The notes under the pieces were generated by a model. It saw only the letters and a program-made list of their open reading frames with translations, searched no databases and was not told where the DNA came from. A stretch of 64,000 nucleotides of DNA from contig OZ260667.1 in NCBI GenBank assembly GCA_965285935.1, forward strand, positions 26,226,001 to 26,290,000. Reading direction: 5' to 3'. Each line of letters starts with the position of its first letter. The first letter of the stretch is position 1. A program made the translations under genes and the position numbers. Below are positions 6,019 through 62,200 of the stretch, piece after piece. This stretch comes from Ophelia neglecta (lineage: Eukaryota).

Positions 6019-9000
6019 GTAAGTGTAGCAAATTATGGTGTCTAGTGTACCATTAATAGTATCATAAATCGCTCAATGTTTGTTATACGTGTACATCAAA
6101 GGGCTCGACCATGGATTCAATGATAGATCATACGACTCAGATAAAGTATGGATCCATGGATGGATCAAATGACCCAGAAAGGCAATGGATCCATGTATAT
6201 ATCAAACGACTCAGATATACCATGGATCCAAGGATAGGTCACATGACTCAGCAGTACCATGGATCCATGGATAGAGCAAGGATCATCAAATATATCAATC
6301 GTCTCAGATGCACCATGGTCCCATGGATATACCAAACGACTCAGATTCACATGGATCCATGCATGAATATATCAAACGACTCGGAAAGACCATTCACTCG
6401 TGAATAGACCTTTGATCAGATCGCCCCGTCAAGAAATTACACACAGGAATGCAAAAATTAAATCCGTCATGTAGCAAATCCTTTGCACATAACAGTTTCT
6501 ACACCAAGTCTTAATTTATACGTTCAATATATTTGCTAAGGAATTATTTTTGCTTTCTGTGGAGCGTAAAGAAGCGGTCAGATCAGAGACCAGGTAAACA
6601 GCCCCACATCAGTAATCAATAATTGTACATTAAATTCGTCCGAATTTACGGGATTCCCATAAACAGACAACCCTCAAATATAGATGACTAATTCGACATG
6701 TTTTTAGTAAGGCTACGAAGAACAAATGAGTCCAAGATACAGTGGCAACATAGGACAACGATGAGTATACTCTCCGAAATAGACTGAGTTATCATAAATG
6801 TGAGATTAAAGATGGATTTATCTCGATATACACGATACAAAGAAGGATCTACATGGTCTTACATTCACCCATTCACCAATATGATAACTATCTAAGAGTC
6901 GCCGATTTTTAGTTTAAACATATTTATATATACTGGTTCCATCCAATAGCTGTAACCTAATTGTGGGAGGTCAACAGTCTGTATTTACAAAAATCAACTT
7001 ATTTACAATTTATCATATATCATAGTAATAATATCATAGATTTTTATACTGGCATTCCTCGAGCCGGATGGATCATTTGTATGATTCGACAAGTCCTCAT
7101 GGTGTGTATTTTACTCAGATAAATTGTTAGAATATTGACACCGGGCGGAAAAGCGCATTATCTTAAAGATCTCGAAGTACACATCCAGATACTGTGGTTA
7201 TCTGAATTTGGATATAAAGAAATGTGAAGTTTACTAGTCGAATATCAAAATTGTCTTTTTGACATCAACCTAATTAAAAAACGATACTATTGTCTTTAAG
7301 AGAGCTGCATCCTAATCAGAAACCATCGGGGCTGTTAGTGGCACCCGAGTTCCAGTTCTACCAAAATAGATGTATACACGTCCCTAATATATTGCCTGAA
7401 ATATTTCTGAACATTGAACATGAAAAAATCACAAAAATACTGAAATGCTATGATATGGATCTTTTCTGGATATTTGCAACTTCCTTTCCTTTAGCAAATA
7501 AGTCATAATTAGTCATTCGAATTAATAGTCGAATAACCATAACTTAGTATGCGACCAATGGAACACAGTTGTTTCACTTTGATGATAGAACCAGGCAAAT
7601 TACACTTTTCATATTTAAACTGAATAAAAAGGTTATTTCAGGAACTCCCTTCCGTTGCGTGGTGGACAGCAAGGGCAGCGGATACATTACAGCTTATGGC
7701 CCTGGACTTATGATGGCGGCCAGTGGAGAAGAAACTCAATTCCACGTCATCGGCGGTTAGTTTTAATGGCTGATCAGCTATGGTTCCGTTATATTTGAAT
7801 CGTGTATGCATCCGATGCTTCGATAAAGATAATAGGTAAAAACAGCTGTTATTGCCCGGCATAGAGAACAATTATTCTTATCAATAAGTAATTAACACTT
7901 TCTGGAATAATTCATTTAGTCTATCTAAAAAATGAAAGGACAATTTATTTTCAAAACCATGGGGCACCACCTAGTCCCACTTGGCTATTAGCATTGGAAT
8001 ATTCTCGAACGAGAAATCCGAATTTAAATATCTCGTAAATAGCCACCTGCTTAAGCAGGGTAAAATGCTCAAACGTGTTTGTATATGAAGTATCAAGATA
8101 TTCGCCAATTTAAACTAAACAGGTAATGCGGACGTCACTATGGACGGACCTTCCAAGGTAGACCTGAAGAAGGAGAAGCATGGGGACGATATGGTTTGTA
8201 AATACCTTCCCCTCAGCCCCGGTGAGTACAGCGTCTCCATCAAGTCCGGTGGCAAACACATCCACGGCTCCCCCTTCAGCGTCAAAGTCTCAGGTAAGTT
8301 CAGGGTCAAACGCACCAAACGAACTCACATTTTAATAAAAGGTCAATACCATAATTACTTGCATCTGCAAGGTTAAACATGAATTTTTTTAACGAGGTCC
8401 AAGCGTCATGCCGGTATTTAATTACTTTGGTAATCACCGGACTAAATGGCAGAATTTCAGTTACATTTGCTGCAGGATACCAAGATCTTGATACATACTT
8501 GTTTAAATTGCTGTCACCGAAAATAATTGTTTCGAAAATGAGAATAAGATATACAACAATTTCATGAATTGGTTGCAAACTATATCCTTAGAATTGTACA
8601 ATCCTTTCAAAATTGTTCACGATTGCAACAATACTTGTTATCAAGTTCATCTTGTGAACTTTATTATTTTTCACATAATTGCGAAATATGATGACATTAT
8701 TCCGTAATTAGAATAAGCTTCTGTCAATTTCATATTAATGGTACCAATAATGACAATAAGTGCTCAACGTTTATACTAATGTATTATGTTAAATATAGTT
8801 CGCTGAAATAATGACGTCACTTTACGTGCACTGTTGTATACATGACACATGTACTAATTCGATGTTTTCTGTTAATTAAGTTTTTCAGTTGGTATATGTT
8901 GTTCATCATCCTATATCTTTTACACCAATATTTTTAGATACGCAGAACTTTTACCAACGTCGCTACGTTTTCAAATCATCATGTTTAAAACTTCACGTTC

Positions 9001-12000
9001 GCCCTACCATTTCATCGAAACACGTTTCATGGCAATACGTTTACTGGTTTTTCCCTTCCTTTGCAAATTAAACGTAGTACTGTCATACTCACGGGTAAAT
9101 TGATTAAAAGTGTGTCGGGAACTCTTCTGGGTGCATAGACAAGTCTCTGACTATAACGCCACAAAAGAGTGTCGTTAAATCCATTTACCCTGCTAAGAGT
9201 CGAGACGGAATGAACATTAATATTTTTCCAATGAGGAGTTCCCGATGCAAAGTTTGTCATTTGTGCCCGAGGGTGAATTGTGTTGTTATAGCTTAGCTTG
9301 AGTGAAATATTTAAACCAGATTGATTTGTGCCGGAAATATTTGTAAGGGGTTTATAACCCGTAATATCATGGTTCATCTCAACATGTATCATGCTCACAT
9401 TTCAGTCTTGGTTTTATACATATGGAGATTTGAGCGTACTCGTATCTAAAATATTGGTTTGCCGAGCCTGTCGCCTGAAACACGCCTGTTGGCATGTCTG
9501 AAACACTAGCTCTTGTACAGGAAAAGTACCTTGCTGTTGTTACCTTTATGTTGTTCGTACTATTTACGTTATTACAGTGAAACCTGTCTAATCAGGTCAG
9601 TCAAGGGAATGGAAAAAACTGACCACATGATTTAGGTGACTTCAATAGGTAGGTCAGTTAACACAGGCTTAAAAGGGGATCGGGCTTTCATTTTGTGACA
9701 TTTGTGGGCAGGTGACCTTATTACACAGACACCCACAAACACAGGTTCCACTGTAGTACATATATATGTTTTAACAAAACTGTGTTTTTCTTGGTACCTA
9801 TAAATTCACTGTGCAGTGAAACTAATCCAGTGGCCTTTATTAAATCCAGCAAAGATGCATGCTTTTGTTTCCTGTTTGCCTTTCAAACAAAGATGATCTT
9901 GGATGAACAGATCCCGGAGATGTCGGTACGTTATCCCTTTTTCTTTTTACCACTACATTTCAATTTCCTTCCCTGTGAATTGGGTTTTAAACAAAAGCAA
10001 TATTAGTCCACACGCGTTCTGGTGTTCTTACAGGCTGCATTTAGCCTTTCGAAGTTTGCTTAATCAAATTTTGCTTTAGTTTTGTCCTATAGAGAAGATA
10101 AATATCTCGAGATAAGTTATATCCTCGAAGTGGTTTGCTAAAGGAATGCTGGCTTTTAAGTATTAATAATAGTTTAATTTGGATGAGTATGTTTATTTCA
10201 AGCATTTGATAATACTTCCTTAATAGGCATTACCACTGTGGCCATTATTAGAGTCGATTTCAGAAAATCGAGACTTTCACAGGTCATTTGCACGGTACCA
10301 TTAAAGTAGATTAGATATGGCTCGCAAAAGAAAGTATCTTGGTTTCAGTCAATCTTTCCACACTTAGTCCCAAAACAAAGGGTGATAATGAAATATTGGG
10401 TCGGTTTTTCCGAAAGATTGGCTTAAAGCAAAGTGACCTTCATTTTTGGCCAGCAATCATATAGGATATAATGTCGGTGGTTTGCCTTTTTTATTCGATA
10501 AAATAGCAATGGTTGATTGGGTTTTTTTCCACTGATAAGTCTATCCTGTAGACTAAGTGCTCCAAATCCAACCCTGCGGAATGCCCCATTTTGTCTAAAA
10601 TGCATGTGTGTCCGATTATGTGCGTCGTTAATTAATTGATTCACCGCAATATATCACGTTCTAATTTTAAGCGCTAACACTGCTGAGAGCTGTGGATGTA
10701 CCTGGCAGTGCTGTGCTTAACCCGTTACCCTCTTCTCTGGTAGCTAGCTGCACATGACTTAGAATAGAGAAGATGTTGTTAACCCTTTATTATCTCTCAT
10801 TCTCTTTCTTTCTCTGTCTCTCTCCCTCTCTCTCTCTCCTTCCTGATTTGACTTGATGTTTTCTTCCTCTCCAGCTGGAGGTAAGTGTTACCCGGCCCAT
10901 GTCACCATCTTGCGGTAAGACACAGAGCGTTTATTTCAAGTCTGGTTGTAGGTAAGGCATTCTAGCTTGGCCCAAGGGCCGTGTCTGCTACACGCGTAGG
11001 AGCTGACAGCTAGGCCAGATAATTCGGTATTCGGTTCTTCAATTCCGCTATCCGAATATCAGTCTAAATTGAAGGTAACATATAGAAATAGTGCTTGCGA
11101 AGATCTAGTCAATCTAACATAACCATCGAGTGTCCTGCAGCTGGTTAAGATAATCGGAATAACTTGTTCCGTTTGCATGAAAAATGTCACGTCCGGTTCA
11201 CGGCGCATGCCAAGTGACCAACACGCATTCACTTAATTACATTATATATTTTGTTTTCTGTTAACCTTTGCCATTCACCATTTCATAACTTTCATCATAC
11301 CATCCATATCCCTGCATCATTATTCTATTTCTTTCTAACTAAAAGGGATTCTTCGGGCAGGCAATTCTTTTATAATTTGCGATAGGCTTTAAGTAGTACC
11401 TTTCTAGCAAGCAACTACGCCTTCTATCTACTTTGCTTTTTATGCAGGTGACAGAATGAAGCTTGCAAAGTAACGATAATGTGCCTAATACCATTTTCTA
11501 TTTTGTTTTGGGGCTGATATTGGACGACTTGGTACGCTGGATGGCAAACAATAATATTTAGTTCGTTAAAAATCCTAAAATTTGTCACCCAAAATGTCAT
11601 TTAGAAATATATTTAACTTGTTCCTATTGTTTCAGAAATGTATGAATTTTTTTCATTAGTCTCCTTTCTTGTACACTCTCATTTCCTCTACTTCTCATAT
11701 GTCGCTGAAATCATACTTCAGACTGCATACCCAACGTTCAACTCATGTGGCTGATGCTAGTTTGACGGCTTTCGTTCGATATGTGTCCAGTACGTTGGGT
11801 GTTATTTGGGCCCTTGTAACCAGATCTGTTTCCATTTGATAGGTGAGGGTAGAAAGAGGTCACAGGTCTCCATCGCAGCTACATGCGAATCCGCGCTGAA
11901 CTCCAAAGAGGTTGACCTTGCCAACATGGTAGCCAGCATCAAAAGTCCAGGCGGAACCGAGGAACCTTGTCTACTCAAGAAAATGCCAGATGGGAAACTC

Positions 12001-15000
12001 GGTTAGTTTGACAACAATTGATCTCCAGTTCCTCGTTTAAAGCTCAAGTGAAAATCGCCATCGTTTTGAATTATTCATTCAAACTCTGAGCAGATATCTG
12101 TGCTGAATAAGTGTATATTAGTTTGTTTTTTTTTTTGTTTTAGGTATGGCTTGCTTTCAGCCCAAGTCATCAGGCATGTATACTGTAACCGTGAAGCTGA
12201 ACGACAAACAAATCAGCGGAAGTCCCTTCAAAGTAGCTGTCGGTGACAGAGAGGTAACTTGGAATTTAATGATATAGTAAATATATATAATTATTTTTGC
12301 AGAAGGCGATTTAGATTAGTATCACATGCGAGCGAATTTGGCTGGCAAACCTTTCTGTTTAACCCGGCAAGCCCTCAATCTGCAAGCAATATTAGAAGCA
12401 AGAAGTTGTCTTTCGGCAAAACAATTAATATCCTTATACTATACAATTCATAAAGGGAAAGATAGGGCGGATAATAACTGTACACGGATGTATTTGCAGG
12501 TGTGCAAAGCCGATAAGGTCAAGCTGAGTGGAGTAGGCCTCAAGAATCCCACGTCCCAAAAATGGAACCCAATTGACGTAAATATTCAGGAAGCGGGTTT
12601 AGGTGCTCTGGCCGTATCTGTGGAAGGCCCCCACAGGTCCGACTTGGAGCAGAAACAAACCGGTCCAGGACAATTCGTCATCCAATTCAGACCCCATGAA
12701 CCCGGAGTATATATGATCAACGTTCGCTTTGGAGATGACCATTGCCACGGTAGGTGGTGCTATAATACTAACCTCGATTAAGTTATAAGTGGCTATAATT
12801 CGGAATCGATTTGATACCCGGAAGACAAACTAGAAACATCGATGAAGTATAATCAATCAAATTTTTCCTAATTAAATCGGGAACCTTAAGCTACAGACGA
12901 ACAAACATTAACTCCTAGTCCCCCACCTAAACAATAACAGCAGAATAACTCTATGCACTCGAAGAGTCTTTGATAAACTTTTCTCTCGCAATATGCAATA
13001 TTGTGCGACTGTTGATGGATTTATATCGCTAAGCCGTGATACCACAAGGAACTGGGTTGTATGCACTATATGTATAAAATTAACAGGTTTCAGGATTTTG
13101 CCATAAAACGAGTGCAACAAGATATTATTAGATTGTTCGGATGTTGACCTTGATTATCATTACACTTAGAAGGAAGTTTTTATTAGGAACACTGTACCAA
13201 ATCCTTATAATATGCGTGTATGTGATGTCACTCAGCTTCTGACTCTTGAGCGGGGGAGCTGTCCCGATGTGTCTAAAGGCAGTGCATTTTAATCTATTCT
13301 TCTTTTTATTGTGTGTTGTTTTTCTTTACTCTAGGAAGTCCATTCATGGTAAATGTTGGAGGAGAATCGTCCGGACGTGTCCGTGAGACGGTCACCAAGA
13401 CAATAGGATCCATCGAAGCGGCTGCTCCCGGCAGCAAGTGCGAATTCCAACTCGTAATCCCAGGTAGGTTCATTGTAAATATTTACGACTGCTCGCATTC
13501 AGAATTATGACAAGCAGAAGTTTTCTTCTTAAATTTGGTATTGAAGCCTATTGATGCAATATTGTTTGTTCATAATGTAAATTGTTTTCTCCAAATTATG
13601 TATACCAAATGTATTGGGTTTTATAAAATGTCAAATAGCCATGCTCCACCCTCAACGGAAATTCATTTTCTATTTGAATTTTGACATGTCTTTTCATTTA
13701 TATCTATTACACCATGATACGTATCGGCCATTAATTAAGGAATAATAAACACTTCATGGTAAACAAATATTGAGGTCTGTGATTTTGACGTTGCTAAATC
13801 CTGCTATCTTCAATAGGAACTGACCCTCTGGATATGGAAGCAGCCCTCACCTCCCCTAGCGGCAAAACGGAGCTTTGTGAGATCAGAGACTTGGCTGAGC
13901 ACCTTTACGACATCAAGTTTGTCCCAGAAGAAGAAGGTGTACATACCGTCAGTCTCAAATACAAGGGACTGCATATTTCTGGTATGATTTAATAAATGGA
14001 ATTGGAATGGACCTGGTTATGATGCATGCTAACATGCCCAAGTTTTTTTAATAACAACTTTTATGAACAAGATTGGCTGTCATTTGAAACATTTGGAAAA
14101 TATTCCACTTTAATATGTATAAACAATATCAATGAGCCAAAAATATAGTGATTTTCTGTGCCAAGTAGTCAAGGGCGTCAGATTTTCTTCATTATATCTT
14201 TGCTGTTTGTGAATGTTGATGTTGATTCTTGCCTCTGTATTTTCTGTTACTGCTAACGCAACTGACTTATAACTATGTGATTATAATGTGCAACTAACAA
14301 TGTTCACATTATTATTATAACATGAATTTCCAAAAATACTTTTGTTTACCGGGTTGTTTAGAAATACACATTTACCGTGTCAATGGTTGCAACAATATAA
14401 GTGGAGGTCTGGTCTCGAGACGAACGCCTGAAATGAACACGATGTTCCTTTCTTATAGTAAACTTGCAATGATAATTAGTGCGTTCCGAAAAGGAGAAAA
14501 TATTGCCGTAGGATTGATTCGTGTGTTTTTTATTTGATCTTCCAACGTTGTGTTAAATTGCAGGCATTCTTTTTCCATATACTGTCCTTTGGAAGTTAGA
14601 ATCCGACAAGCAAAGGCCTTAAACCGACTGCAACACAATATACAATGTTGCTAGTTGAGATCAAATCGAATGTTCATTGAATACAGCCCTTGTCATCCAA
14701 AAATACAACCTTGAGTGAATGCCCTTCTAGTTTCGACCTTGTTCGTCCCAGTGCACATTAGAGACTCTTACTTTTTAAAAACGGTGATGTGCATGCACTT
14801 CTCCAGAAACCAGTTTTTCAGTACGACTCCAATGGGTTTGCAACATTGGTCCGAACAGCATGCATATAATTGTCCAGTGTAGAGCTGGAAAGAGTCTGCT
14901 GCTTAACATCGTCTTCTTTTCCAAGTAAATATATTTATGTCACCCTCAAATAACAATCGAACAACCCTTGGCACCCTTCACACAGGGTAGGGCCTCTGAC

Positions 15001-18000
15001 CAAAATGTTGCAGAAGAAGTCTTATTTAGTTTGTGGTCTAGAGAAGATCTAGTGTCAGAATTGAATAGGTCCTTGCAAGTTGGGTAATGTGCACTCATCT
15101 TCATTGCAATGTGTCTGTTTGGCATTAGGTCAATTAGATATAGAATCTGTTTGTAGTAGTAAAACCATGCTATGAGAAATCAGATGGATGTCTTAGGTAA
15201 TTTCATTATCTACCTGTTATTAATTACAGAGTAGATACTTTTAAATCGCTTGAACAGATCTTAGCAAATCGATATTCTCGATCTTCTAACTTTTGCGGAT
15301 TAATAGAATATGGAGACTTATATTCTGGTAATGATTTATTTGGCTAAACCTGGTTGAGTAAGCGTCAGGATTTGATAAAGGTACGAAGCGTTCACCAACT
15401 GACACTGACTTAAATGAAAAATTGTTTCATTTAAAAATTAAATATACATTTTAATACATTATAAAGTAAGGGCGAAATAAGCACTTTCGCATTTTACACA
15501 TCGCCAAAACAATAATATGCCAATTGTTTGTGCTCAAAACTTAAAACACTCACCTGTAATGGTGTTTGATTGGCTTCCACTGTAGTCATGTGATTCCATG
15601 CACATTTTCTGATTGGTTGATATCATGGTTACAGGGAGCCCTTTCCAGTACACGGTCGGTGGAAGTCCATCAGGAGGCACTCACAAGGTCGAAATCGGTG
15701 GCATCGGTCTGGAGAAAGGAGAGGTCGGAATAAAGAGTAAGTGTGACAAAGTTGGTACAATCGCAATTTCATACATAATTGCAAAAGAATTTACTAGATC
15801 TATCTTAAATAAGATAGATTTCAATCATTAGCATTGAATATGATTTCAAATATGATTTTATTCTAGACATGTTTAACATCTACACACGCGAGGCGGGACC
15901 AGGTTCCTTGGCCGTTTCAGTTGAGGGACCATCCAAGGCAGTTTTAGATGTTCAGGACCGCGGCAACGGCTATACCACCGTCGGGTACAAAGTTACTGAA
16001 GCGGGTAAGTGTTGCAGACAACAAGGAACTCCGTTTATGTTCCGTTCAGCTCTCCAGACCGTGAATTGTCTACAAGAAATTATAAGAAGTAATCATATAT
16101 ATATATATGTGGCATATGATAGCAACATTGTTATCAAGTGCCCAAACCATGTGGTCACGTGTTTAAATAAACTAAAGCTGTACTGTTTTAAAGCTGTTTT
16201 TAAAGATTTGTTTTTGATTTTGTTTCAGGCGATTACGGTATTCACGTGAAGTATGATGATGCTCACGTCCCTGACTCCCCCCAAATGGTCTACATCACCC
16301 CCGAATCAGCTGACGCCAAGAAATGTTGCATCAGTGGATTCCGCGATAGGGGTTTGGAGGTAAAACTTGAATAATTACGGTTAAAGTTAAAACTTGAATA
16401 ATTACGGTTAAAGTTACAGATAATTTTCCCTATTTGTCCAGCCTCAACTGTAACAACGGACAAAATTATCTACATGGTTTTCTAAAGATCGAACAAACGA
16501 AACAAGTTGACAATTATGTATGCAACGATGATTATGCCTCAGTGGTATTATTTGATATTGTCATTGTTTTAACAGGTTGGAAAGATGGCCAACATGAACG
16601 TAGAGTTGAACGGCGCCAAAGGCGAGATAAAGGCCCATCTAGATACTCCGTCTAGCTCGGAGATTGATGTGTTTGTCCAGGAGTTGGATTCCGATCTCAC
16701 TAGGTAAATCATTATCGGTATAAGAACAAAACGCATTGCACTTGTACTTGGATTACGAAGCAGTTCAATGAATTTTTAGAATGAACCATGGGAAAAAATT
16801 GTATTATTAACAAGACGGAAAAATGAATAATAACAATATTAATATATTTATAATTGATTAAGAGTTTCAATAATAATTATTATGTGGTAATGTAAGCAAG
16901 GAATATGGTATATCTCGATACGCCCCATCGTTGGTCCTTGAAGGTTTTTTTTCTTTTATTTTATAGTTTGCGTTTCGTACCCAAGGAGAATGGAGTCTAT
17001 TACATGCACATCAAGCTGAAGGAGGCCCACATCCCGGGCAGCCCTTTCGCCATGCTGGTCGGCAAGATACACGCGGACGTCGCCTTGGTAACGGCTAAGG
17101 GAGATGGCTTGAGTACAGCAACATCTGGTGCGAAAAATGGCTGAGTTGATGTCTGAGTCTGATATAAGCTATTCTAACTGTTAAGAGAAAGAGAGAGCAC
17201 ACTCATTCGCAGAATTATTTCTCTGCCTTGCATTTATTTCAATACCCCGTTCAATATAAGCAACTTTTCAGAAGCAATGTTTTCCTATTTCACGGAGATA
17301 TTACAACATGATTCGAACACTTGTAATTTATAAATAACGGCACATTTTTTATATTGGGTGAATAAATGAATAATGTTCTATCGATGTGGAACCATTATTT
17401 ATTTTCTCAGGCTGAAGGACATAGGCAATAACATTATTTTTCAATTTGTAGGCAAATCTGCCAAGTTCACTGTGGTTACAACCAATTCTGGAGAAGGAAC
17501 GCTGTGTGTTAACTTTGAGGGACCTTCAAAGTGTGCCATCGTCTGCAACGAGGTAGATGAAGGCTATGAGTTCACTTGGACCCCAATGGCCCCAGGAGAA
17601 TACCTCATTAACATCAAATACAGCAACGTCACTATCGCTGGATGCCCAACCAAAGCAGTAGTGGATGGTAGGTCATATTTACATCAAAGATTTGTGAAGA
17701 AGGTACCTGTATACCTAACAATAGGATTGATAAAAGATTGAAAATACAATAGCAATGACAAATATAAAAAAACACTTCTTTCGTCCACCACGGATGTGCT
17801 GTATTCAATCTTTCGATTGTCCTTTGTGTCCATAGCTGGATTTATTTGAAGATACTCTCGGTGATCGAGTATATAAAAGGGTTTTTTCTTCTGTCTTCTT
17901 CTAGGTAAGGGTAAGCCTTCCCAGTTCCGTGAAACCTCTACTCTGGCGGTGGAGACTGTGGCCAAGAAACCTGGTGCCCCTCCTGCCAAGAAGTTCCTTG

Positions 18001-18530
18001 GAGACGCCTCCAAGGTCATTATTAAGGGTCCTGGTCTGAAGAGCTGCTTCGCTGGCCGCCCGGCCACATTCACTGTGGACGTAAAGGACGCCGGTAAGTC
18101 ATCAAATATGTCTTGGGAAAAGGTGGGCCAAGGAAAAAATCCGGGGTTATTTAAGAAACAGGAAAGTACGAAATAGCTTCGTTATCTAAGCATACATCCT
18201 TATATGAAACTGTTCAAACTACATGTACGTTGGAGCAGGGCCTGGTTCCATACACAGGTATACCGCATCCCCGATGATTCAATCTCGAGATGGCTCCATC
18301 ATACCAAATTAGACTAACCTTTCCACATTGTATTTCAAGGAAACGGTCTCCTGATGGTCGGTCTGATTGACCCGAAGGGTAATCCAGTAGACGAGTGCTC
18401 TTACAAAAAAATGAGAGGCACCTGCTACCAGTGCACATACAGAACTTCGGCCAAGGGTGAAAACCTGCTGACGGTACGATGGGGTAACGAGGATGTTCCC
18501 GGCAGTCCTTTCCACATTTTACTCAAGTAA
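5895..18530 (+). CDS. Short filamin-like protein (second half of Ig16 through Ig24 in FLNA numbering), 16 coding exons, about 825 aa
   Basis: Manually spliced exons 5895-6018, 7642-7755, 8123-8293, 11843-12001, 12144-12253, 12500-12749, 13335-13463, 13817-13981, 15635-15736, 15867-16004, 16229-16359, 16576-16703, 16967-17127, 17452-17667, 17905-18093, 18340-18530. All introns are GT-AG with compatible phases and sum to 2478 nt of open frame. Filamin motifs recur (AYGPGL, EGPSK, GSPF, EEPCLLK, TSPSGK, TREAG, RFVPKENGVY, TPMAPGEY, DASKV, VRWGNEDVPGSPF-end). Confidence 0.95.
6104..6385. repeat. Degenerate minisatellite, about 36-bp unit with palindromic CCATGGATCCATGG core
   Basis: Repeated atatatcaaacgactcagat...ccatggatcca units in the first filamin coding intron. 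Confidence 0.85.
7642..7755 (+). CDS. Filamin exon (TPFRCVVDSKGSGYITAYGPGL...)
   Basis: tttcag acceptor, G|gttagt donor, AYGPGL motif. Confidence 0.92.
8123..8293 (+). CDS. Filamin exon (Ig17-like: DGPSK...PGEYSVSIK...HGSPFSVKVS)
   Basis: aaacag acceptor, G|gtaagt donor, filamin motifs. Confidence 0.92.
9575..9753. mobile_element. Tc1/mariner (pogo/Tigger-like) MITE in a filamin intron
   Basis: Terminal inverted repeats CAGTGAAACCTGT ... ACAGGTTCCACTG (12 of 13 match), TA on both sides as target-site duplication, 179 bp, non-coding. Confidence 0.75.
10792..10842 (+). repeat. CT-rich tract upstream of the microexon acceptor
   Basis: Nearly pure pyrimidine (TC)n-like run. Confidence 0.8.
10875..10880 (+). 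CDS. Candidate 6-nt alternative microexon (CTGGAG) adding Ala-Gly
   Basis: Long CT-rich tract, then ttttcttcctctccag|CTGGAG|gtaagt. Phase 1-1 matches the flanking exons and preserves frame. Confidence 0.7.
11843..12001 (+). CDS. Filamin exon (Ig18-like N half: EGRKRSQVS...EEPCLLKKMPDGKL)
   Basis: gatag acceptor, G|gttagt donor. Confidence 0.93.
12144..12253 (+). CDS. Filamin exon (MACFQPKSSG...SGSPFKVAVGDRE)
   Basis: Poly-T tract plus tag acceptor, GAG|gtaact donor. Confidence 0.92.
12500..12749 (+). CDS. Filamin exon (Ig19-like)
   Basis: tttgcag acceptor, G|gtaggt donor; encodes EAGLGALAVSVEGPH...EPGVYMINVRFGDDH. Confidence 0.93.
13335..13463 (+). CDS. Filamin exon (Ig20-like N part: GRVRETVTK...GSKCEF)
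   Basis: ctctag acceptor, G|gtaggt donor. Confidence 0.92.
13817..13981 (+). CDS. Filamin exon (DMEAALTSPSGKTELCEI...GVHTVSLKYKGLHIS)
   Basis: caatag acceptor, G|gtatga donor. Absent from the ORF track but clearly filamin. Confidence 0.93.
15635..15736 (+). CDS. Filamin exon (SPFQYTVG...GGTHKVEIGGIGLEKGE)
   Basis: ttacag acceptor, A|gtaagt donor. Confidence 0.93.
15867..16004 (+). CDS. Filamin exon (Ig21-like: FNIYTREAGPGSLAVSVEGPSKA)
   Basis: ttctag acceptor, G|gtaagt donor. Confidence 0.94.
16229..16359 (+). CDS. Filamin exon (DYGIHVKYDDAHVPDSP...)
   Basis: tttcag acceptor, GAG|gtaaaa donor. Confidence 0.92.
16361..16415. repeat. Exact 27-bp tandem duplication at an intron start
   Basis: taaaacttgaataattacggttaaagt present twice. 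Confidence 0.9.
16576..16703 (+). CDS. Filamin exon (Ig22-like: LNGAKGEIKAHLDTPS)
   Basis: taacag acceptor, AG|gtaaat donor (phase 2). Confidence 0.92.
16967..17127 (+). CDS. Filamin exon (LRFVPKENGVYY...HIPGSPF)
   Basis: ttatag acceptor, G|gtgcga donor. Confidence 0.92.
17452..17667 (+). CDS. Filamin exon (Ig23-like: EGPSK...TPMAPGEYLINIKY)
   Basis: ttgtag acceptor, G|gtaggt donor. Confidence 0.93.
17905..18093 (+). CDS. Filamin exon (hinge-2 region and start of Ig24: ETSTLAVETV...GDASKVIIKGPGL)
   Basis: ttctag acceptor, G|gtaagt donor. Confidence 0.93.
18340..18530 (+). CDS. Filamin terminal coding exon (Ig24 dimerisation-type repeat, ...VRWGNEDVPGSPFHILLK*)
   Basis: actaac branch-point-like motif, tttcaag acceptor, TAA at 18528-18530. 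Confidence 0.92.
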
Positions 18531-23975: not shown

Positions 23976-24902
23976 GCAAATAGATGTCAACAATTCATGA
24001 ATGCTTTCAATTTCATGATGATTAATTAAATAGTGTAACATTATAATTAATTTTGAGTTATCAACATAATGATAACGCTTTATTATAAAGGTGAACGTGT
24101 ATCACGTTTTTATCCCGCACGATCGATAAGTGACTTTAAAAAGTAGTCAGAAGAAAACAACAAAGGAACTAACGCCTTATCCCCAGCCTACATCCATTAA
24201 TTTAAAAGGAGACAATGCAATATGATGAACAAATTTAAATGTGCAACACAATATTGTTTTTTTTTTAAATCAAAAGATACCCATCATGCGGGTATTTCAT
24301 ATTAAACTATGAAACAGCATATAAGTTTTTTTTTATGAATAAAAACACAAACACATATAACTGTACATATCATTGATGCAGACCAGATATCATAGCTATC
24401 AACAGCAATGTAAAGAGGTCCGCGGGGTAGACATTCCGGAAAAAAATGTCACTCGACTGTCTAAACATGACCTCCGTAGAGTGAATTTACACCTAGTTCC
24501 GTCTTCAGCCAAAATCTGAACAATGAACCGTAAACCGGAAGCCAACTTTACATTGCTGCTATAAACCGCAAACACAGACAGGTGTTTATTTTTAGACTCA
24601 CGCGAAATAGAACGTATTTTATAAGAAAGAAGGAACCTGCCCTTTAAGTAGGCTACATATAGATAGATGTTTTAATGTGTGTTAAGGCCTAGAATAAGCG
24701 CGAATCAAGGCATATTTGGCACAGGTGCAAGTGTTAAATAGCATATATGCATACAGGTGGGCTAAGGGCAAACTTAAGTGTGTTGGGTATGATAAGGCAT
24801 TTGACACTTGTGCCTGTGATGGTTTGACTTAAATGTAATGCAGATAAATGTACGAAATGGATATATCAGTAACTAAAAAGGAAATGCACTCGGAGTGTAC
24901 GG

Positions 24903-25467
24903 TCAGGAAAACTCTTTAAGGCACCAACTGGTCATTGTTAAAATGAACAGGGCAAATAAACGGTTGGACGGAAATAAGGCAAAGCCACTGAAATCGAACG
25001 AGAGCTCTAGATGTGCGCCCCACATTGTTAGAAGACGGTTATGCAAACCGCGGACCCCGCTGGAAGACGAATAATTACATGCTCCCATCTGTCCGTATAC
25101 TGCCAGTGTAAAATCAAGTAAAATGCCGTTAGGTGAGCCACATGAGCTGATGGCGATGTACCATTGACGGACCTTGTCCGACTTGATTATACGGCCTCCA
25201 TGACAATGGATCTGCCGCTCCCCATTTTGTGTTACATTGCTGGTACAGCCACTAGAAGGCTGGCTGGGCGATAAGGTGATGACTTGAGGCCCAAGTGGAT
25301 CCACCACGCTCTGTTTCTGAATACAGTTCATGCGCGCTCTCAAGAAATTCGTCTGCTCTTCCATGTATAAAATTAATTTGATGCAGCACCGTTGCTCAGG
25401 ATAGTGGATTTTGTAGTAAAACTTGGCACCGTTGGCACGCAGACGAAATTCACCAAGATAACCATAC
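24903..25467 (-). CDS. Constant terminal exon: TMEM145/GPR180-type luminal (GOLD-like) domain plus hydrophobic GPI-signal-like tail
   Basis: ctttccag acceptor before 25467. The motifs YPEQRCC-LILY, NCIQKQSVV, QVITLS, SGC, HCHGGR, RQWYIAISSC and GILLDF parallel TMEM145 motifs recalled from memory (YPEAKCC-ILLY, DCLAKESVI, QVINLT, SGC, SCSSGR, RWWYIALSKC, GLQLEY). TGA at 24905-24903. Confidence 0.85.
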
Positions 25468-25611
25468 CTGGAAAGATATATTATGATGATTCTATGTAAT
25501 ATCATCAGCATAAGAAGCGTTATAAGCGAAATAAGACGTAGACAATAATTATCTGGATTTCAAAATGGAACCGAGACTGAATATAAAATGTATGATTATA
25601 TGATATCTTAC

Positions 25612-25752
25612 CAATTTTTGGAGATATCAAGTCGACCACTGGCTTCACAGGGGCCGGGATGTTCATATTCGTTTTCTGGACTCGCCTGAGAGTCGTCCCC
25701 GCCCAATGGGTCTGTCCCATTTACGATAAAGGTACATTGGTCTACGTGGGCA
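25612..25752 (-). CDS. Constant middle exon (AHVDQCTFIVNGTDPLGGDDSQASPENEYEHPGPCEASGRLDISKN-W)
   Basis: ccatttcag acceptor, TG|gtaagat donor, 141 nt, phase 2-2. Joins the terminal exon in frame (KNW|YGYLGEF), resembling TMEM145 G.L.SKEDWVFL. Confidence 0.85.
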
Positions 25753-35903: not shown

Positions 35904-36100
35904 CAGGGGAACTCAGTGCCGGAGGACCAGTAAGAGAAGCCTTCTGGTTCTGGCATAATTCCTATTGAGTTGTTTTCTGGTTTGGACTGAGAGAGAACCC
36001 CGTCGAATGTCAAACTTAAAATAACAGCCGTGAAAACCAAAATAGGTGAAAATCGCATAAGATGTTGTAACAACATTGGGTATCCAACCAGGTTTTGCAT
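35904..36100 (-). CDS. Variable signal-peptide exon V1 (MQNL...ILVFTAVILSLTFDGVLS/Q...EPEGFSYWSSGTEFP-C)
   Basis: Hydrophobic signal peptide, shared EPxGFxYWxxGTxFP motif, phase-2 TG|gtaagt donor compatible with the exon at 25752. Confidence 0.8.
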
Positions 36101-37613: not shown

Positions 37614-37813
37614 CAAGGGAACGCTGTCCCGGCGACCCAGTAAGGAAAGCCTGTGGGTTCCGCAGGGAAACTCATCGAAGAATTATCTGTTGATGACATG
37701 GTTTGGGCGCCAACCGTGTTCATCGCTACTGATAATATATTGAAAACTGCAGCACAGGCGACAATGAAAAGCGGTTCAAACATCATTATATAATCTCGAA
37801 CCATTACTCTCAT
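37614..37813 (-). CDS. Variable signal-peptide exon V2 (MRVMVRD...VGA/Q...EPTGFPYWVAGTAFP-C)
   Basis: Same motif and same phase-2 TG|gtaagt donor as V1 and V3. Confidence 0.82.
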
Positions 37814-41300: not shown

Positions 41301-41688
41301 GCTTATTTCATACTTTCTCGAATATAATTTCTTGACCTTAATGAAGATGACAAGTCCTAAAGCAATAAAGACGGATACAAACTCGGACTGAGTTAAATTT
41401 TAGATCTGAATGAAGATATATTAGTTATATATTAATGAACGGCAAATTTGGTTTAATAGGATATGATTTCCATCAACTGAATCCGGGAAATTTGCAACAT
41501 TACCTAGAGATTATTTGTTCCGTATCGTTAATATACTCAAACAATGCTATTCACAAGTTTAGGGTGTATATAGTATGCTCTTTTTGTGAAGCACACTTTT
41601 GAAGCATTTGGCTGTTTTCCAAGCACTTCTTGCAATCTTGTGCTAGCTTGCTCATTGACTACTCAAGCACAACGAGGAGAACAGTAAT

Positions 41689-41866
41689 GGCCGTTTTCAG
41701 GTTAATACCGGAGGACAGTGTCCACGATCGATCTCATGGATAATTTGATCGTGCTCAACTTAGTTACCGCTGTCGAGTTAATATCGTCGGTAAACTTGGA
41801 TTGTCGGAACTACTCATTTTATCAGGGTTGCTTTATCGCACCCGGCAGAGCACAGAGTATCAATCT
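41689..41866. promoter_or_regulatory. Conserved non-coding element, copy 1 (about 3.9 kb upstream of V2)
   Basis: Gap-free 178-bp alignment to 56037-56214 with about 40 mismatches; no reading frame is open in both copies. Confidence 0.7.
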
Positions 41867-44325
41867 CCTGAGGGCGTTCTCTGAAAATAACAAAGTAAAT
41901 GTGGACCTTGGCTCCGAAGACTAACCGGACAAAACTCCCTGCAAAGCAAAAATCTGATACGAAGTCAATGTAGCACATCAATTAATAATGCAAATGATGC
42001 GATGGTTGCATATACTTCACTTCTGGATAAGCAGATAACCGTTTATCAACTCCAGGGGATGCCAATGATAAAAGTCTTAGTATGAAAATGGCCTGGTGGG
42101 TTTCCTTTAATTCAAATGTCACAAAATCTTGTGCACTTAATCAGACCCATTGTCTTAAACAGCCTACCTGAAATAACACTTCACACTTAGTAAGGGATAA
42201 TGGCCTCAAAGCGATCAGAAACATGCTACATGCGGGTATCATATACCGAGGAGTTGCCGACAAACTTTGTATTTATTTGCTTGATCCCAACATCTACCAC
42301 TAGCTCTCTACGACACGGGAGATACAGAAAGTGAGCAACTGCAGGTGGATATTAAACTTGATTAATGAATATACTTTGTCCTTCGCATTCCCCTCTCGTT
42401 TTATTTATCTTTTCGATCACTATATGATATGAGAGTGTGACGTTCTCACATTTTCCCAATTGACAACCGATTTGTTCAATCGACGGAAAGTGTGTGTATC
42501 ACTGCTATAAGGGAATTTTCAACTGCTCCTTTAGTCGCATGTGTACTGAGACTAGTGTATGTTGTGGTATTTGTATTCTTATGTCATCTTCATAGGAGCT
42601 ATATCCTAATTATTCTCAACGAGGATCAAATACAACCTCGTCCTACACTGACCAACAACTCAGGAATGGCACACATCGTGGAATTATGACGACTGTCACT
42701 GATTACATTTAAATCTCGTTTATATTTCGTCCTCCATGTATAGTTTTTATATGATGAGCAAAACTTTGCAATTGACGTTCCCGGTATATACGTTTCTAAG
42801 TTACCCTGGCTGCAAAGTTCCCCAAATCAAAACTCTAGCAAACGAGACACATATAATTAACTATTGGTTTCCGACCAGGGAACGTTATAATCCAGAGTTT
42901 TCATACCGGATTCCTGCACATACTAAGATTTCTAAATCGATGGACTTTAAATATTAGTGTTCTAAGTCCGGGGTACTCTTGGGTTGAGATTAGTAAATTC
43001 AGACCAATGAGACCTCCCACGGGACTGCCAACCAAATACAGGTACTGTGTATCGAAGAAATAAAAATATTTGTATTGTCTCTCGGATACTTATAAATGTT
43101 TATTTTTATTAAACTTGGGCAAGCAAGCCTTGATAGTAGATACCAAATCGAATATTACTGTCAAGTTTTGTTTGAAGGAAATTGGCTAGACAGATAATTC
43201 CCTCAATTATTGGATGTTTCAATATCATATCATCTCATTTAAAGTTTTTTCTGTCGAGATTTTATTGTAAAATAAACTTCCGAAAAAGCATTCAACTTTC
43301 TGTTGTAAACACTGCAGAGACACACTGCAGTGATCAAGCATGAAAAATGGTCCAAATAGATTGCCGCTTACAAAAAAGGTTAATAACAAGTGGCTTCAAC
43401 GGCGCTCGTCATTTATTATCCAATTATATAACTTGATTGGATGGACAAGATATGGGAGACTGGGTACAATGTGAGAGTCGACAACTGAGATAGGAACGTG
43501 TACTCAAAGGACAATTGTCCGCCTCGATGAGCTATTTGTATCCTTTGTTGTTTTCTTCATCACAATTGATATTTGAGAATTACCATTATGTCCCCGGCAA
43601 CTCGCCCCAAATACAAATAAGCACACCGACCCACAATCTTTGCTTCTATGGTGCGCAATGAAATAAACTGTATTATCCTCTGCATCATTTATTTTATGAA
43701 AAAACAAGTCACTATAATAAACTTACTAAAAATAATGAATATATAAATGACGATCTCGAGTACAACAGACATGATTTCGCTGTTGTTACGTTAAAATGGC
43801 TGTGCGCGGCTTGTAGGAGGGTCTTGGGGTCGGGGGGGGGGGGGGTGCTAGAAGAGATGCCCAAGACTTTCATTTGAAGCAATTATACTTCCAACACTCA
43901 GTTGGAGGTTCCTGATGAACTGATTTAATACTATGAGGCAGAAAAGCACATGCTCTTACATGTGCCCACACAACTTCTGTTCATGACTTACGCAGAGCGT
44001 TTAAAAATAGCTTAGTGTCCATGACAAAAAGTAAATGTCTCCCAAATTGAAACCGATAAGTGTTGAAAGCCAGGTAAAACCCCAAACAACAACAACAACG
44101 ACCAAATTATTATTACTTACAAAATAATATTCACAAAATAGATTGACAGATCAAATAAACATCAGCTCAGTGTGATCAAAATTTACAAACCATCGTATAT
44201 TATTAGAACTCAACAAATACCCGCATGAATGACACTAACCAAAATGAAATTGCTCCAATCGTAAGTCAATTCAACTCAACAAGGGCCAAACATGCATCGC
44301 TATCAAAAAAGGATATATTGAATAT

Positions 44326-45400
44326 ATCATTATTATTATTTGTTTATTTTCCTCAAATGAATGAGAGCATACATAGGTATAACGGTAAGTAAGGATAATC
44401 AAAATAGTAATAGGTTAATAATAGAATACTATTTACCATATCAAACAAGTGTTCATCGTTCACGGTGACTTCATACTATCTAAATAGATTTATATATACG
44501 AGGTAGTATACATCGTGCGGGCATATGGTCCAAATGCACACACAACTACTACGATGAGTTCCTCATAGTTTTTTTCAATTTGTACTAAGTTTGTGCCTAA
44601 CAGGTTTGGTATTAAATCAGGATCGTCACTCAAAGTCTACAATTTTACAAAATCCTTTGTGGACAATAAATTCACTAAAATTATCCCTGACATCAAATAA
44701 ACAGAAACAGCCGGAATCAAAGAACAGGTGAGCTAAAGGGTTGATTATGTTTTTTTGACAAAGTAAACATGAAACATTAAAACATGGATTGTATAGACTG
44801 ATTTGGGGCCTTTTCTTTGCAATCCCATAAAAAGACAAAGCTTGATTGGGAGATTCTTGGTGGACATTAAGAAATGTAGTTAGCCCTGGTTTTGAAAAGC
44901 GACCATCGTCTAATAACAAGGTCTCATGTTTAACCATTGAGGTCCGCACGGTCTGCTTCCACTGTTGTTTAGTAGGTAAGATAGGGAATTGGTTCTGCCG
45001 AGACTGTTCCCAATAGGATGATAGTTCATATTTACTGATCAACCTCTTAATATCGGGTACAAAAAAAACCAATGCGCTCGGCGCTGCATATGTTTCTACG
45101 AGACGGTGTTGAAATATGCGTCCCGCAAGGTGTCTATTTGGATCCAATTAACACAGTTTATGAAAAAACATCAGCTTTTTATAGTCGATCTGTGTTTCTA
45201 AGTGAGTCCAGCCAAGAGCGCCTAGTGCGATCTCTGAATGTGTTCTGGGGACAAAGCCTGAATATTCTTTGCCACATAACGGTGAAGGGCTCCTAGTTCT
45301 TGAATTTCAGACTGGGTAAGGTTCGTCCATAATTATATACTGCAAGGGTAATTTTTTCTTTCAAATTCTTAATAGTTTCATTTGGTTGTATACTTGGATT
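44326..45400 (-). mobile_element. Decayed 5'-truncated non-LTR retrotransposon 3' end (RTE-X-like)
   Basis: Minus-strand translation with a frameshift and stops gives LWTNLTQSEIQEL...KNIQ / RTHSEIALGALGW..LETQIDYKKLMFFHKLC ... PTKQQWK ... CLLC...HLFF..C, typical post-RT and zinc-knuckle sequence. It ends in AATAAA followed by (AAT)n. Confidence 0.7.
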
Positions 45401-52041: not shown

Positions 52042-52232
52042 CAAGGGAATGCTGTACCAGCGACCCAGTAAGGAAAGCCTGCTGGCTCGGCCTGAAATCC
52101 CATCGACGAGTTCTCCGAAGGTGACATCGACTGTCCGTCCACTGCGGTTATGGTAAACGACAGAACCTTAAATACGACGGCCGAGGCGACTATAAGCAAC
52201 GGTTTAAACATCCGTGCATATTTCTGAAGCAT
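52042..52232 (-). CDS. Variable signal-peptide exon V3 (MLQKYARMF...VDG/Q...EPAGFPYWVAGTAFP-C)
   Basis: 38 of 63 aa identical to V2 without gaps. The terminal 12-aa motif differs from V2 only at synonymous sites. TG|gtaagt donor. Confidence 0.82.
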
Positions 52233-53699: not shown

Positions 53700-54360
53700 C
53701 ACACACGATGAACGGAGACCACCAGTGTCTTGGATAGACATTAAACATGACATAATGACCGGAAGATACGGAAGTCCCTGGACAGGCAGACCCATGACAT
53801 AATGCAAAGACGCTGGAGAGAAAAACTCGTGACATAATGAACGGACGGAATGAAAGACTTGGAGACACATAAACATGACATAGTGAACGGCTCATACAAT
53901 AGTCTCTGGACAGACATAAATTTAAGATAATGAATAGAAAATACGAAAGTTGCTGGACGGACATAATCATTACATAACAAACGAAGAATACGAAAAGCCT
54001 GGAGAGACAGAAGGCTGATATAATGAACGGATAATACGAAAGTCCCTGGACAGATATAAACATAAGAAAATGAATGGAAAATACGAACGTCCTCGGATGG
54101 ACATAAACATGACACAACAAACGAAGAATACGAAAGGCCTGGAGAGACATTAGAATGACATAATGAACGGCTAATACCAAAGTCCCTGGACAGAAATGTC
54201 CATGACACAATGAACGGGGGATAGGAAAGTCACTGAACAGGGATGACATACTAAACGGGGATACGAAAGTCGCCGGATAGACATGAACTTGACAACAAGA
54301 ACGAAGGAAACAAATGTCCTGAGTACCCATAAAGGGATAAAACGAACGGAGGATACGACA
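53700..54360. repeat. Degenerate tandem repeat, about 40-47-bp unit (atgacataatgaacgg..aatacgaaagtccctggacagacataaac)
   Basis: More than ten diverged copies; explains the overlapping 248-aa and 155-aa ORFs. Confidence 0.88.
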
Positions 54361-55396: not shown

Positions 55397-56036
55397 TTTT
55401 AACACATTAAACTCCACCCGAACTATATTTGCTCTATAATTCCCCTTTCTTAAATCATCAGAGAGATCAAGTACATTTTGGGTTTGACAGTGGATTCGTC
55501 ATTGAACACATCTGTCCACGTTTAAATATTTCAAAGCTGTCTCTCCAATAAGCAATTGTTCTTTGATAAAAATAAAACATGTTCATTCCATTGACACAAG
55601 AATGAATTCGATTGGCCTTGACAAAGAAAAGGTTCTTTCGAACAAGGTCAAATAAATGCCGAGAGATGTTCTACTGATAACCCCTCCCAGTCGGACGTCT
55701 TGGCGGACCACAGAGGAAGCAGACAATCTGAGATAAGCTGCAGATTAAAGGCCGGGAGCATGAACCAGAAACAAATAGAGCCAAAGATAAACCACCGACC
55801 AAAAGGGGTGGTATGGATCTAAACAAAATGAAAGGAAATCAATTCCTCGAACAAAAACACTTCGGGGATGTCATACACGTCAGAGGTTTTATCCGAAAAC
55901 AAAATACGAAGAAAAAATTTCAAAGGCTTCTGAATGTTTATAATCAATTTCAAACATTTTCCATTAAACAATCCTTTCAATTTAATCATCATTCCGGTAT
56001 GTTCGTTTGTCATACATTACAGGGTGGTCCACTACT

Positions 56037-56214
56037 GGCTGTTATCACATTAATGCTGGAAGCCAGTGTTCTAGATCAATCTCTAGGATAATTTGATCGA
56101 GGTTAACATAGTTACAGCTGTGCAGATAATTGTGTCGGTAAACCTTTATTGTCGGAACTGGGCATTTTATCACAGATGCTCCATCGGAACCTGCAGAGCA
56201 CAGAGGATCAATCT
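56037..56214. promoter_or_regulatory. Conserved non-coding element, copy 2 (about 3.8 kb upstream of V3)
   Basis: Paralog of 41689-41866. Its offset of 14348 bp nearly equals the V2-V3 offset of 14428 bp. Confidence 0.7.
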
Positions 56215-59200: not shown

Positions 59201-62200
59201 GGGCTTAACTTTAGAAATGGACAGTTTGCTAAATACACGATTGATCTGTTGTGCAAAATAAACTCAACTACATTTTTTTGTGGAACGAGTCACCAAATTT
59301 CTGGTAATAAAAATGAGACAGATAATGGCAGAGTTAATAAAATGTACCCTTGTATCACATATTGCTGATAAAAAAATCTTAGGTCTTCCACAGCTATAGA
59401 AGTTATATCATGCAGAGTATAATTATACAAAAAAGAGATTAGTGAAAAAAAGTTGCATTTGTTTCAAATTAACCAAGTATACCGTAATAATTATTTTCGC
59501 ATGCGCAAAAATCTCGCGCAGAAACGTCAGAAGCACTTGCATTTGAAATCTGAATTGGAAAGTTTCAATCGATTTTCCTTTTAATTAAAAAAATTGAAAT
59601 TTAATAAATCGATTTTTTGTCGATCTCTTTAAACCACATATAACATAGGACTAGCTTGTTTTGTGGAAAAAGGGCATTTTCCAAATTCACAGATCAATAT
59701 TCAACCAATTCATCCAAGCTAACACACGCCTCGGGGACTTGAGGAAACCTTTAAAGGATTCCCTTAGGCTCAAGGGGAGTCAATATAAGATCGATGAATC
59801 TCTTTTGTACTATTCATGTTAAGGTCCTAGTTGCCATTGTTTTAACACGTAAGGAGTCAAAGACTTCAATAGCTTTGCGTGATATGTTCCGATCATCCCA
59901 AGACGTCATGTACATCTGCTTCATACTGATATAACATCATATGTTCCAGATGCACGTGTTCTGTCTCAATAAAGCGTGACTAGCTCACTTTACAAAGTTT
60001 AAATTAATGCACTATCGGGGAAATTTAATGCCAAAATTTCACGAAAATGGCCAAAAAAAGTTGCCAAAGTTGAAATTATGTCCAGTCTTTAGACATTTTA
60101 GGACATTGTGCTACGGGGTTATCTCTGTAGGTCCCCAAATACGCATGTAAAATGTTCTCAGCAACGTAATTCTGTTTAAAAATTGGTATCGTATGTTTTT
60201 CAAAATGACTGTAATCATAAGCGTAAGTTTGATTTTCAGCACTTGAAATCTCATATTAATATGCTGCATTGTTTTTAATGTTCGTAGTAAAAACCAAAAT
60301 GTGGGGATCTTTAATTAAGCACTTTTACCTACTTAAAATTCGTTTTAATAATTTCTTGGTCAAAAGAGCCTTTGCCGAGTCCAGAAAGTTGCAAAATATT
60401 TCTATGTTTCCATTAAGCATATAGTTCACTAGAAATATAGTTCACTGTGCGAAATTGTCAATTTTTCATTTAGAGACACAGGCCTATATGCTTGTTTTTA
60501 CATTGTTCATGAGCTATTCGAACGAAATGTGACTTTGATTATGCTGTGCATCGCCTTAGGCGTCATTTAAAAAAGTCAAATGTTCTTTTATTGAACCAGG
60601 CCAAAGCGACGGATTTATCAACAAGCTGGGGGCAGGTCCTAGCAGCGGCCTTATATATCAAAACAAACTCTTGCCGCAAGAATACATGCGTGCCCAGTCG
60701 GAAGAGATTATTTTGATCATACACTGATGAAGAATTAACAACAATCGGAATTCGTTGTGCACAATATATTCAATATTTAGCAATTGGTGGACTGCTAACA
60801 AAATATGCTCTTTGGTAAACTGACTGTCGTTATCTACAACACGCAAATGTGTCGTTTATAGAATAATTTATAACACTGATTCTAATGAGCACATGGCATG
60901 TATACATCAAGATTCTAACAAACACAATCAGTTCATCAAATATTATACGATTCACTTCTAAAGGCGAAAATCTACATCCAAGTATATGTCCTTGCTTAGC
61001 TTTTCGTAAACAAGAATTAACTACAATCAATACAATTGATATTGGGAATTTAATGGCAGTTTAAAGTAGAATATAATTACCCTTAAATCGAGAATTAGCG
61101 AAGGTTGAAGGGAGATTTCAGATAAATATTACTTGATGCCATGATAGATTTCGAGTTTACTTGGAAAGCTGATGGTCAGTGGAATGTGAAAAACAGTACT
61201 AGTAGTAAGAGCAGAACGACGTCTTCCGGCAAAAGGTCATCATAACGACCAGTGAGATTTTTCGTGTCAGCAGCCAATCAGTAGGGCCTTTGATTGCCCT
61301 GCCACCATTCTAGAAACCCCGCTGAACTATGTGGCATTAAGATCTCATTGATTGACACATCAAATTTATCTGTAGATAAGCGAGAAGAATGCTGACAATT
61401 TATGACCTGCGCCCAAATCGCATTATAATATATGAATCATGATGTTCGCGAGTTGTTTGCATTGGCTTTCATTGGTTTGATAGCCATTTTCTTTCTAAAC
61501 GTAATAACTTATAAAGCTGAAAAAGGTCGAAAAATTGAAGTCGATCTGAGAGAGGCTTAGGATCAAATCCGAACCAAACCATTGCCAAAGAGTAGAAAAC
61601 AGGAATATGAAAAAGTGCATTTAAACAAGTGAGATCCCTTCATAGGAGCCGGCTGGTATATCTGATTGACTAGAAAGGTGAAACAAGCCTCACGGAAGTG
61701 GAAAGCAAATGTAACACTCTCAAAAATAAAATCACGCTTAGCATGAGAAAATTCATACGTAAAGTTAATGTGAATTAAAGTATCATGTAATCGACTGCGG
61801 TTCGTAATGACACCAGCCTATCCTCTTCCCAAAATCAAGCTAAAGACGCCATAACGTTGGGATGAACACCGCGGGAGTTAGTCGGTTCGTATTGAATGTT
61901 ATCAGGTATGTGCTCAAGGTTACGGAATCGATCTCTGGTGACGATACATTCAGCTTAACACAGTTATCTACGTCGGTAAAATAGTAATAGGTATCTCTGA
62001 TAGCCGAAGTCAGTCATTTCATTAAACTAACTCAAACCAGAAACTTTCCAGTAAAAGGTCATCGATTTCCATAGGCATCATGAAATCCTAACCAATGACG
62101 GAAACTACTGAATCAAGTTCACATTTTGTTAAGATATTAATGACATTTACTTAGGCGTGCATAGGGCAGATTGGGGCAAAATGTGACTCTAGGCAATACG

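Follow-up and report, generated by a model that had tools for sequence, protein, structure and literature searches.

The window, which here means the whole stretch of 64,000 nucleotides that was analysed, lies on contig C12 of a 762 Mb genome. On its minus strand we found what is almost certainly a real gene encoding a TMEM145-type GOLD domain without the seven-transmembrane (7TM) module. The features of its constant part were as follows:

25612..25752 (minus): constant exon, with a CT[FY].[VI]NG motif, an acidic linker and the first GOLD strand with the N-terminal cysteine (25649-25647)
25468..25611 (minus): GT-AG intron of 144 nt
25077..25467 (minus): first part of the terminal exon, the remaining TMEM145_N GOLD domain up to the added C-terminal cysteine (25079-25077)
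25062..25076 (minus): small-residue run past the domain, at the position of the omega-like sites of relatives; cleavage here would take off 52-56 residues
24984..24995 (minus): other omega candidates if the rule is relaxed, at residues 158 and 161 of the terminal-exon protein P0001; cleavage would remove 29 or 26 residues
24918..24959 (minus): hydrophobic end of 14 residues, with a best 12-residue mean hydropathy of 1.84; a helix in the model
24903..24905 (minus): stop codon TGA

The motifs on which the original prediction was based (YP..CC, C..K.SV, QVI.L, SGC, C..GR, R.WYIA.S.C and G..L.(F/Y)) were all present in the minus-strand frame 25466-24903. Re-reading of this frame confirmed that LAVYG is followed by the small-residue run NYSSSSG, a spacer, the hydrophobic end LFALFILTMTSWCL, four residues and the TGA. 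The content of the terminal exon was as predicted, while its start was corrected to 25467, directly after the AG at 25469-25468. The exon 25752-25612, which has AG as acceptor and GTAAG as donor, contributes the domain's first strand and matched the family profile with an hhalign probability of 93% (E 2.5e-7). Candidate poly(A) signals were located past the stop (ATTAAA at 24676 and AATAAA at 24590). The 3' part of a filamin gene was found at 8119-18530 on the plus strand, in convergent orientation, and ends about 6.4 kb downstream of the gene studied. Among the differences listed from three DNA runs of one sample, the only one inside the terminal exon was a single substitution at 24913; the runs were contigs spanning the introns without splice joints and have no bearing on expression.

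Three candidate first coding exons and two copies of a non-coding element were found upstream:

52042..52232 (minus): candidate first coding exon V3, with an ATG, a signal-peptide-like stretch, a linker ending in FP and a phase-2 GTAAG donor
37614..37804 (minus): candidate first coding exon V2, its protein 60% identical to that of V3; donor and phase as in V3
35904..36100 (minus): candidate first coding exon V1, with the ATG at 36100 or 36076; donor and phase as in V3
56030..56214 (minus): non-coding element, 77% identical to 41682-41866 and about 3.8 kb upstream of V3
41682..41866 (minus): second copy of the non-coding element, about 3.9 kb upstream of V2

The hydrophobic cores of V1, V2 and V3, assessed by hydropathy alone, reached 12-residue values of 2.55-2.6. 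In the inferred splice forms, each V exon joined the constant exons in frame and created a cysteine at the junction, giving predicted products of 292-300 residues with four N-glycosylation sequons. A genome search recovered exactly these three V exons. Neither that search nor one of the window extended by 20 kb upstream revealed a fourth V exon or another copy of the constant exons. Between V2 and V3, dN was 0.25 and dS about 2.2 over 63 codons, the latter being near saturation. V2 also carried a polymorphic in-frame three-base deletion in the DNA runs. The V exons leave all but the signal peptide and about 35 residues unchanged, so it is more likely that they serve separate promoters than that they change the binding domain. 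The two 185-bp elements, the only copies recovered by a genome search, were offset by 14.4 kb, equal to the offset between V2 and V3. Their presence upstream of V2 and V3 only is as expected if a unit of promoter plus exon was duplicated, and the element is possibly a promoter or an untranslated first exon. A weak third match to it was seen at 61890-62024 on the minus strand (E 0.005), with no V exon found beside it.

To identify the domain, the terminal-exon protein was compared with profiles and structures. Its sole Pfam match at E <= 1 was PF21892 (TMEM145_N), which covered profile positions 13-130 of 131 at E 4.2e-22, its 79.3 bits lying above the cut-off of 28.1. An AlphaFold model, computed for the terminal exon from a 25-row alignment (mean pLDDT 82.7), consisted of a beta-sandwich at residues 1-130, a low-confidence linker and a 21-residue C-terminal helix. 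In Foldseek the model matched nothing at E <= 0.001, and the GPR180 N-terminal domain stood at rank 5 (E 0.047, probability 1.00). The model of a Capitella relative likewise gave nothing at E <= 0.001, with the same domain at rank 13. When the top 1000 chains were re-aligned, the GPR180 N-terminal domain came first, with a Z of 9.2 and an rmsd of 2.6 over 103 residues, followed by the SEC14L GOLD (Z 7.1-7.3) and p24 GOLD (6.0-6.5) domains. Sequence searches of solved structures returned nothing relevant and no match to GPR180, while the feature matches in the ESM Atlas, all <= 0.80, serve as leads only. The claimed identity with the TMEM145/GPR180 luminal domain, and with it the GOLD fold, is thus supported by the PF21892 match and by the first place of GPR180 after re-alignment, the Foldseek E-value itself not being significant.

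The best structural match, the GPR180 N-terminal domain (PDB 9FOW), was 14% identical, and natural GPR180 is a 7TM protein, whereas the window's protein has no 7TM. The p24/TMED cargo receptors are characterised by a coiled coil, a transmembrane helix and a cytosolic sorting tail. They have the GOLD fold (Z 6.0-6.5) and a single membrane attachment in common with the window's protein, but showed no Pfam match here, and the window's protein ends four residues past its hydrophobic stretch, with neither a coiled coil nor a cytosolic sorting tail.

GOST proteins are defined by the fusion of GOLD and 7TM, and in all members the GOLD domain leads directly into the 7TM bundle, according to PMC12716839. 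In the gene studied the frame stops at 24903 and no 7TM frame was found in the window, so that by the defining fusion its protein is not a GOST member. To search for downstream multi-pass exons, a 7TM profile was built from 12 canonical 7TM regions, and the genome's own TMEM145 region on C7 was used as the control. At E <= 1e-6 this profile picked up eight frames in the control, whereas nothing in the window scored better than E 0.29. An exon-by-exon search with PF10192, the Pfam 7TM profile, gave at least seven matches in the genome, on C1, C2 and C7, and none on C12. The absence of multi-pass exons downstream, as originally reported, was therefore borne out in the window by the 7TM profile and on C12 by PF10192. 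A normal TMEM145, complete with GOLD and 7TM exons, is present on C7, so that the gene in the window is an extra paralogue.

The full-length TMEM145 at C7:13,864,400-13,884,050 (minus) contained tandem duplicated exons. The second half of its GOLD domain was present three times, each copy matching PF21892 positions 60-125, and a late transmembrane exon four times; a second copy of an earlier GOLD exon was less certain. These duplicates are likely to be spliced in a mutually exclusive way, with 12 to 24 predicted isoforms. The other PF10192 matches, at C1:117.688-117.690 Mb and C2:10.42 Mb, probably belong to GPR180-type genes, and PF21892 did not match their N-terminal domains.

Relatives of the protein were collected by a sequence search of 1.84 billion representatives, which gave 162 matches at E <= 0.001. 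Word-indexed searches gave 1 and 7 matches and missed most of the relatives. The best 60 of the 162 matches all carried PF21892, and 8/60 carried PF10192; among the best 41 relatives, some of them single-exon fragments, the latter was found in 0/41. Many relatives were frames called on genomic DNA. No longer fused relatives (556-2000 residues) were seen among 6005 candidates, which is weak evidence. Most of the 30 proteins looked up had no name. The named forms without 7TM comprised a single-domain protein of Capitella teleta (ELU03865.1), tandem-domain proteins of Dimorphilus gyrociliatus and Intoshia linei, single-pass proteins of Biomphalaria and Liolophura, a short protein of Sepia from a third cluster, and short proteins of Acropora and Haliotis. 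The coral and abalone forms look as if they arose independently. The same domain without 7TM, which the original prediction had proposed to look for in other invertebrates, was thus found in annelids, molluscs and coral.

Phylogenetic trees were then built from the aligned domains. GPR180 domains were absent from them, and the trees are therefore unrooted, without an outgroup; the group labels were set after the sequences had been seen. In a quick tree of 92 domains, 17 single-domain rows fell on one branch (99). A more careful tree retained 60 of the 92 domains, 32 having been dropped as long branches or as near-redundant. Here 12 single-domain rows grouped together with support of 100/99, and were joined by the first domains of the tandem proteins at 96/88. 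A split supported by 96/91 separated 40 domains without 7TM from 16 fused to 7TM plus 4 other domains without 7TM. The pattern is most simply explained by a single old loss of the 7TM module, with further independent losses in Acropora, in Haliotis and in a Ly6 fusion. Loss is preferred to gain because the fused form is spread widely in eukaryotes, as stated in PMC12716839. The uncoupling is no local event at this locus; the gene belongs to an old invertebrate branch without 7TM, of which this genome contains two further members.

The cysteines separated the same groups. Four were common to all aligned domains (92/92). An added cysteine just past the last strand was present in 62/64 domains of the main group without 7TM, compared with 0/24 of the 7TM-fused domains and 1/4 of the others, while the second-strand [FY]C cysteine showed the reverse distribution (0/64, 24/24 and 3/4, respectively). 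The pattern was similar but less clean for a cysteine that opens the first strand, e.g., 13/13, 16/16 and 15/15 versus 4/21. The first and last strands (1 and 8) of the GPR180 domain are adjacent in the structure according to PMC11605061, which makes it likely that a disulfide between the first and last cysteines would close the domain without 7TM. TMEM145, a GOST protein with PF21892 and PF10192, has a signal peptide and a homologous N-terminal GOLD domain with the four conserved cysteines. Compared with it, the window's protein lacks the 7TM bundle, the cytoplasmic tail and the [FY]C, and has the added C-terminal cysteine and a GPI-like tail.

Capitella ELU03865.1 has the same architecture and falls in the same clade (100/99). 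Its tail of 28 residues passes the strict omega rule, unlike that of the window's protein, and its N-terminus gave no alignment with the V3 exon. UniRef lists it as "GPR180-like N-terminal domain-containing protein", an automatic name only. The databases file proteins of this kind under TMEM145-like or GPR180-like receptor names even though the receptor part is missing, which is a naming error.

Other architectures were also observed. The two paralogues without 7TM in the genome, at C5:34,127,985-34,129,244 (L001:787-2046, minus) and C5:56,707,484-56,708,611 (L007:1363-2490, minus), are intronless and encode a signal peptide, two TMEM145_N domains and a hydrophobic end. The first domain of L007 is too diverged for Pfam, and L001 continues for about 20 polar residues past the hydrophobic stretch. 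The mollusc single-pass forms P0038, P0040, P0041, P0044, P0073 and P0074 consist of GOLD, one membrane helix and a cytoplasmic tail, with a PPPPY motif (in the four sequences inspected) and a C-terminal ET[ST]A, which resembles a PDZ ligand. Some of them carry the wrong names "midnolin homolog" or "rho GTPase-activating protein gacZ". One unnamed record, P0098, combines a TMEM145_N domain of the 7TM-type branch with a Ly6/uPAR-like domain (E 5e-5, just under the cut-off) and a GPI-like tail. The tandem form also occurs in the orthonectid Intoshia linei (OAF70446.1, P0037), a parasite whose gene set is much reduced.

To evaluate the C-terminal tails, a simple GPI-like rule was applied to 44 proteins picked from the matches and the genome's paralogues, leaving out fragments and the tandem protein P0015 with its long extra tail. 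A hydrophobic end was present in 24/27 single-domain and 16/17 tandem proteins, compared with 85/545 random stop-terminated frames of the window, and the full rule was passed by 15/27, 13/17 and 20/545, respectively. The window's protein passed the hydropathy test narrowly, with 1.84 against a threshold of 1.8 and 6 residues past the best window, and P0001 contained no 17-residue membrane window. Both the window's protein and its closest relative, P0002, failed the strict omega rule. Its tail was 57 residues long against a median of 37, and bore no significant likeness to that of P0002 (165/2000 shuffles were as good). Under the relaxed omega rule, likewise a simple one, it passed at residues 158 and 161, 29 and 26 residues from the end, and the serine run offered further sites 52-56 residues from the end. 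The predicted GPI-anchored surface protein is in keeping with the tails of the family, while the window protein's own tail is atypical in its length and its failure of the strict rule. Judged by these sequence features, GPI anchoring is quite probable for the family and somewhat less so, at rather better than even odds, for the window's protein.

The explanation that we favour, with a probability of about 0.5, is by analogy: a TMEM145-type GOLD domain without 7TM, likely secreted and GPI-anchored, would serve as a surface tether or co-receptor for an extracellular protein. A TMEM145 construct without the 7TM still binds stereocilin, while tubby requires the 7TM (PMC12789471), and worm TMEM145 is located in sensory cilia (10.1101/2023.03.31.535034). 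A protein of about 292-300 residues would arise by splicing one of the three signal-peptide exons to both constant exons. A disulfide between its added N- and C-terminal cysteines would then close the domain and replace the link to the 7TM bundle, and the tail would be swapped for a GPI anchor. In the proposed GOST model, GOLD and 7TM both grip one cargo (PMC9711517). A GOLD domain on a lipid anchor would keep the outer binding half and lose every cytosolic contact, which is why we favour a tether or co-receptor. With no cytosolic part, coat proteins and tubby would not be recruited, and the partner would be held at the surface, with neither cargo carriage nor signalling by the protein alone. 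By analogy with TMEM145, the likeliest site may be sensory cilia or microvilli.

Uncoupled receptor ectodomains that are secreted or GPI-anchored are known from sFRP, GFR-alpha, T-cadherin and DcR1, although the analogy is one of design only and the folds are unrelated. Among these, sFRP acts as a decoy for Frizzled. In the same manner, the anchored or shed domain might take the ligand of the full-length TMEM145 encoded in the same genome and limit its action. This would agree with the ligand binding retained by the isolated TMEM145 GOLD domain (PMC12789471). However, its identity to the 7TM-fused domains is only about 30% for the window's domain, which lies on a separate old branch, so that a shared ligand is not expected, and the tandem and single-pass forms, the latter with cytoplasmic motifs of their own, suggest independent roles. 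We consider a decoy unlikely.

Similarly doubtful is a luminal trafficking adaptor, which would bind secreted cargo in the ER and exit with it, the GPI anchor acting as the export signal. In its favour, it is reported that p24 GOLD domains recognise cargo and that GOST proteins are proposed trafficking chaperones (PMC9711517), that TMEM145 promotes stereocilin secretion (PMC12789471), and that GPR180 is found in intracellular vesicles (PMC11605061). But the secretion activity is known for full-length TMEM145 only, and the window's protein has no cytosolic retrieval tail, so it could not cycle.

There is also a small chance that the surface role is as we propose while the hydrophobic end stays in place as an uncleaved membrane anchor instead of GPI. 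The failed strict omega rule, the long tail and the 21-residue C-terminal helix of the model point in this direction, as does the true transmembrane helix of the mollusc relatives. The hydrophobic core is weak, however, at 14 residues with no 17-residue window at the membrane threshold, and the relaxed omega sites would give signals of the usual length, 26 or 29 residues. That the tail is intron read-through, or the gene a broken TMEM145 duplicate or one with unseen downstream exons, is very improbable. In its favour is a weak possible donor at 25078, which scored 1.8 on a frequency table, compared with 3.6-6.6 for the four assumed donors. Against it, 57 further open codons would arise by chance in 4% of cases, the closest relative shares the long hydrophobic end, no 7TM exons were found in the window or on C12, the end of the convergent filamin gene lies about 6.4 kb downstream, named relatives share the architecture, and the V exons have dN far below dS.

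TMEM145 has recently been tied to hearing, for which it is needed in mice, and to sensory cilia. The gene described here, which we favour as a surface tether or co-receptor, is a conserved variant of a known domain family without 7TM. It is apparently undescribed, although the architecture is already in databases under automatic names. In the literature covered, which included few subscription papers, no report of TMEM145 domains without 7TM and no mention of PF21892 was found. Since a conserved natural family consists of GOLD alone, the domain must have a job without the bundle, and these proteins provide small, likely disulfide-closed GOLD versions for ligand hunts and structure work. A much bolder proposal, which we regard as speculative and improbable as a whole, is that the TMEM145 GOLD domain was freed early in animals and became a surface recognition family with GPI-anchored single, GPI-anchored tandem, single-pass and Ly6-fused forms. 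It would have been diversified in this genome by alternative first exons at this locus and by the duplicated GOLD and transmembrane exons of TMEM145. The outcome would be a cell-type code linking sensory cilia or microvilli to the extracellular matrix, which in invertebrates would correspond to the attachment crown of hair cells.

Repeats were observed elsewhere in the window. At about 44050-44100 and 44300-45300, a very high-copy short repeat lies beside a moderately repeated element. The bin depth of the short repeat exceeded 30,000, compared with about 30 elsewhere, and the adjoining element was skipped in some contigs. Furthermore, degenerate tandem repeats at 53700-54360 and 6110-6390 gave rise to long spurious open frames.
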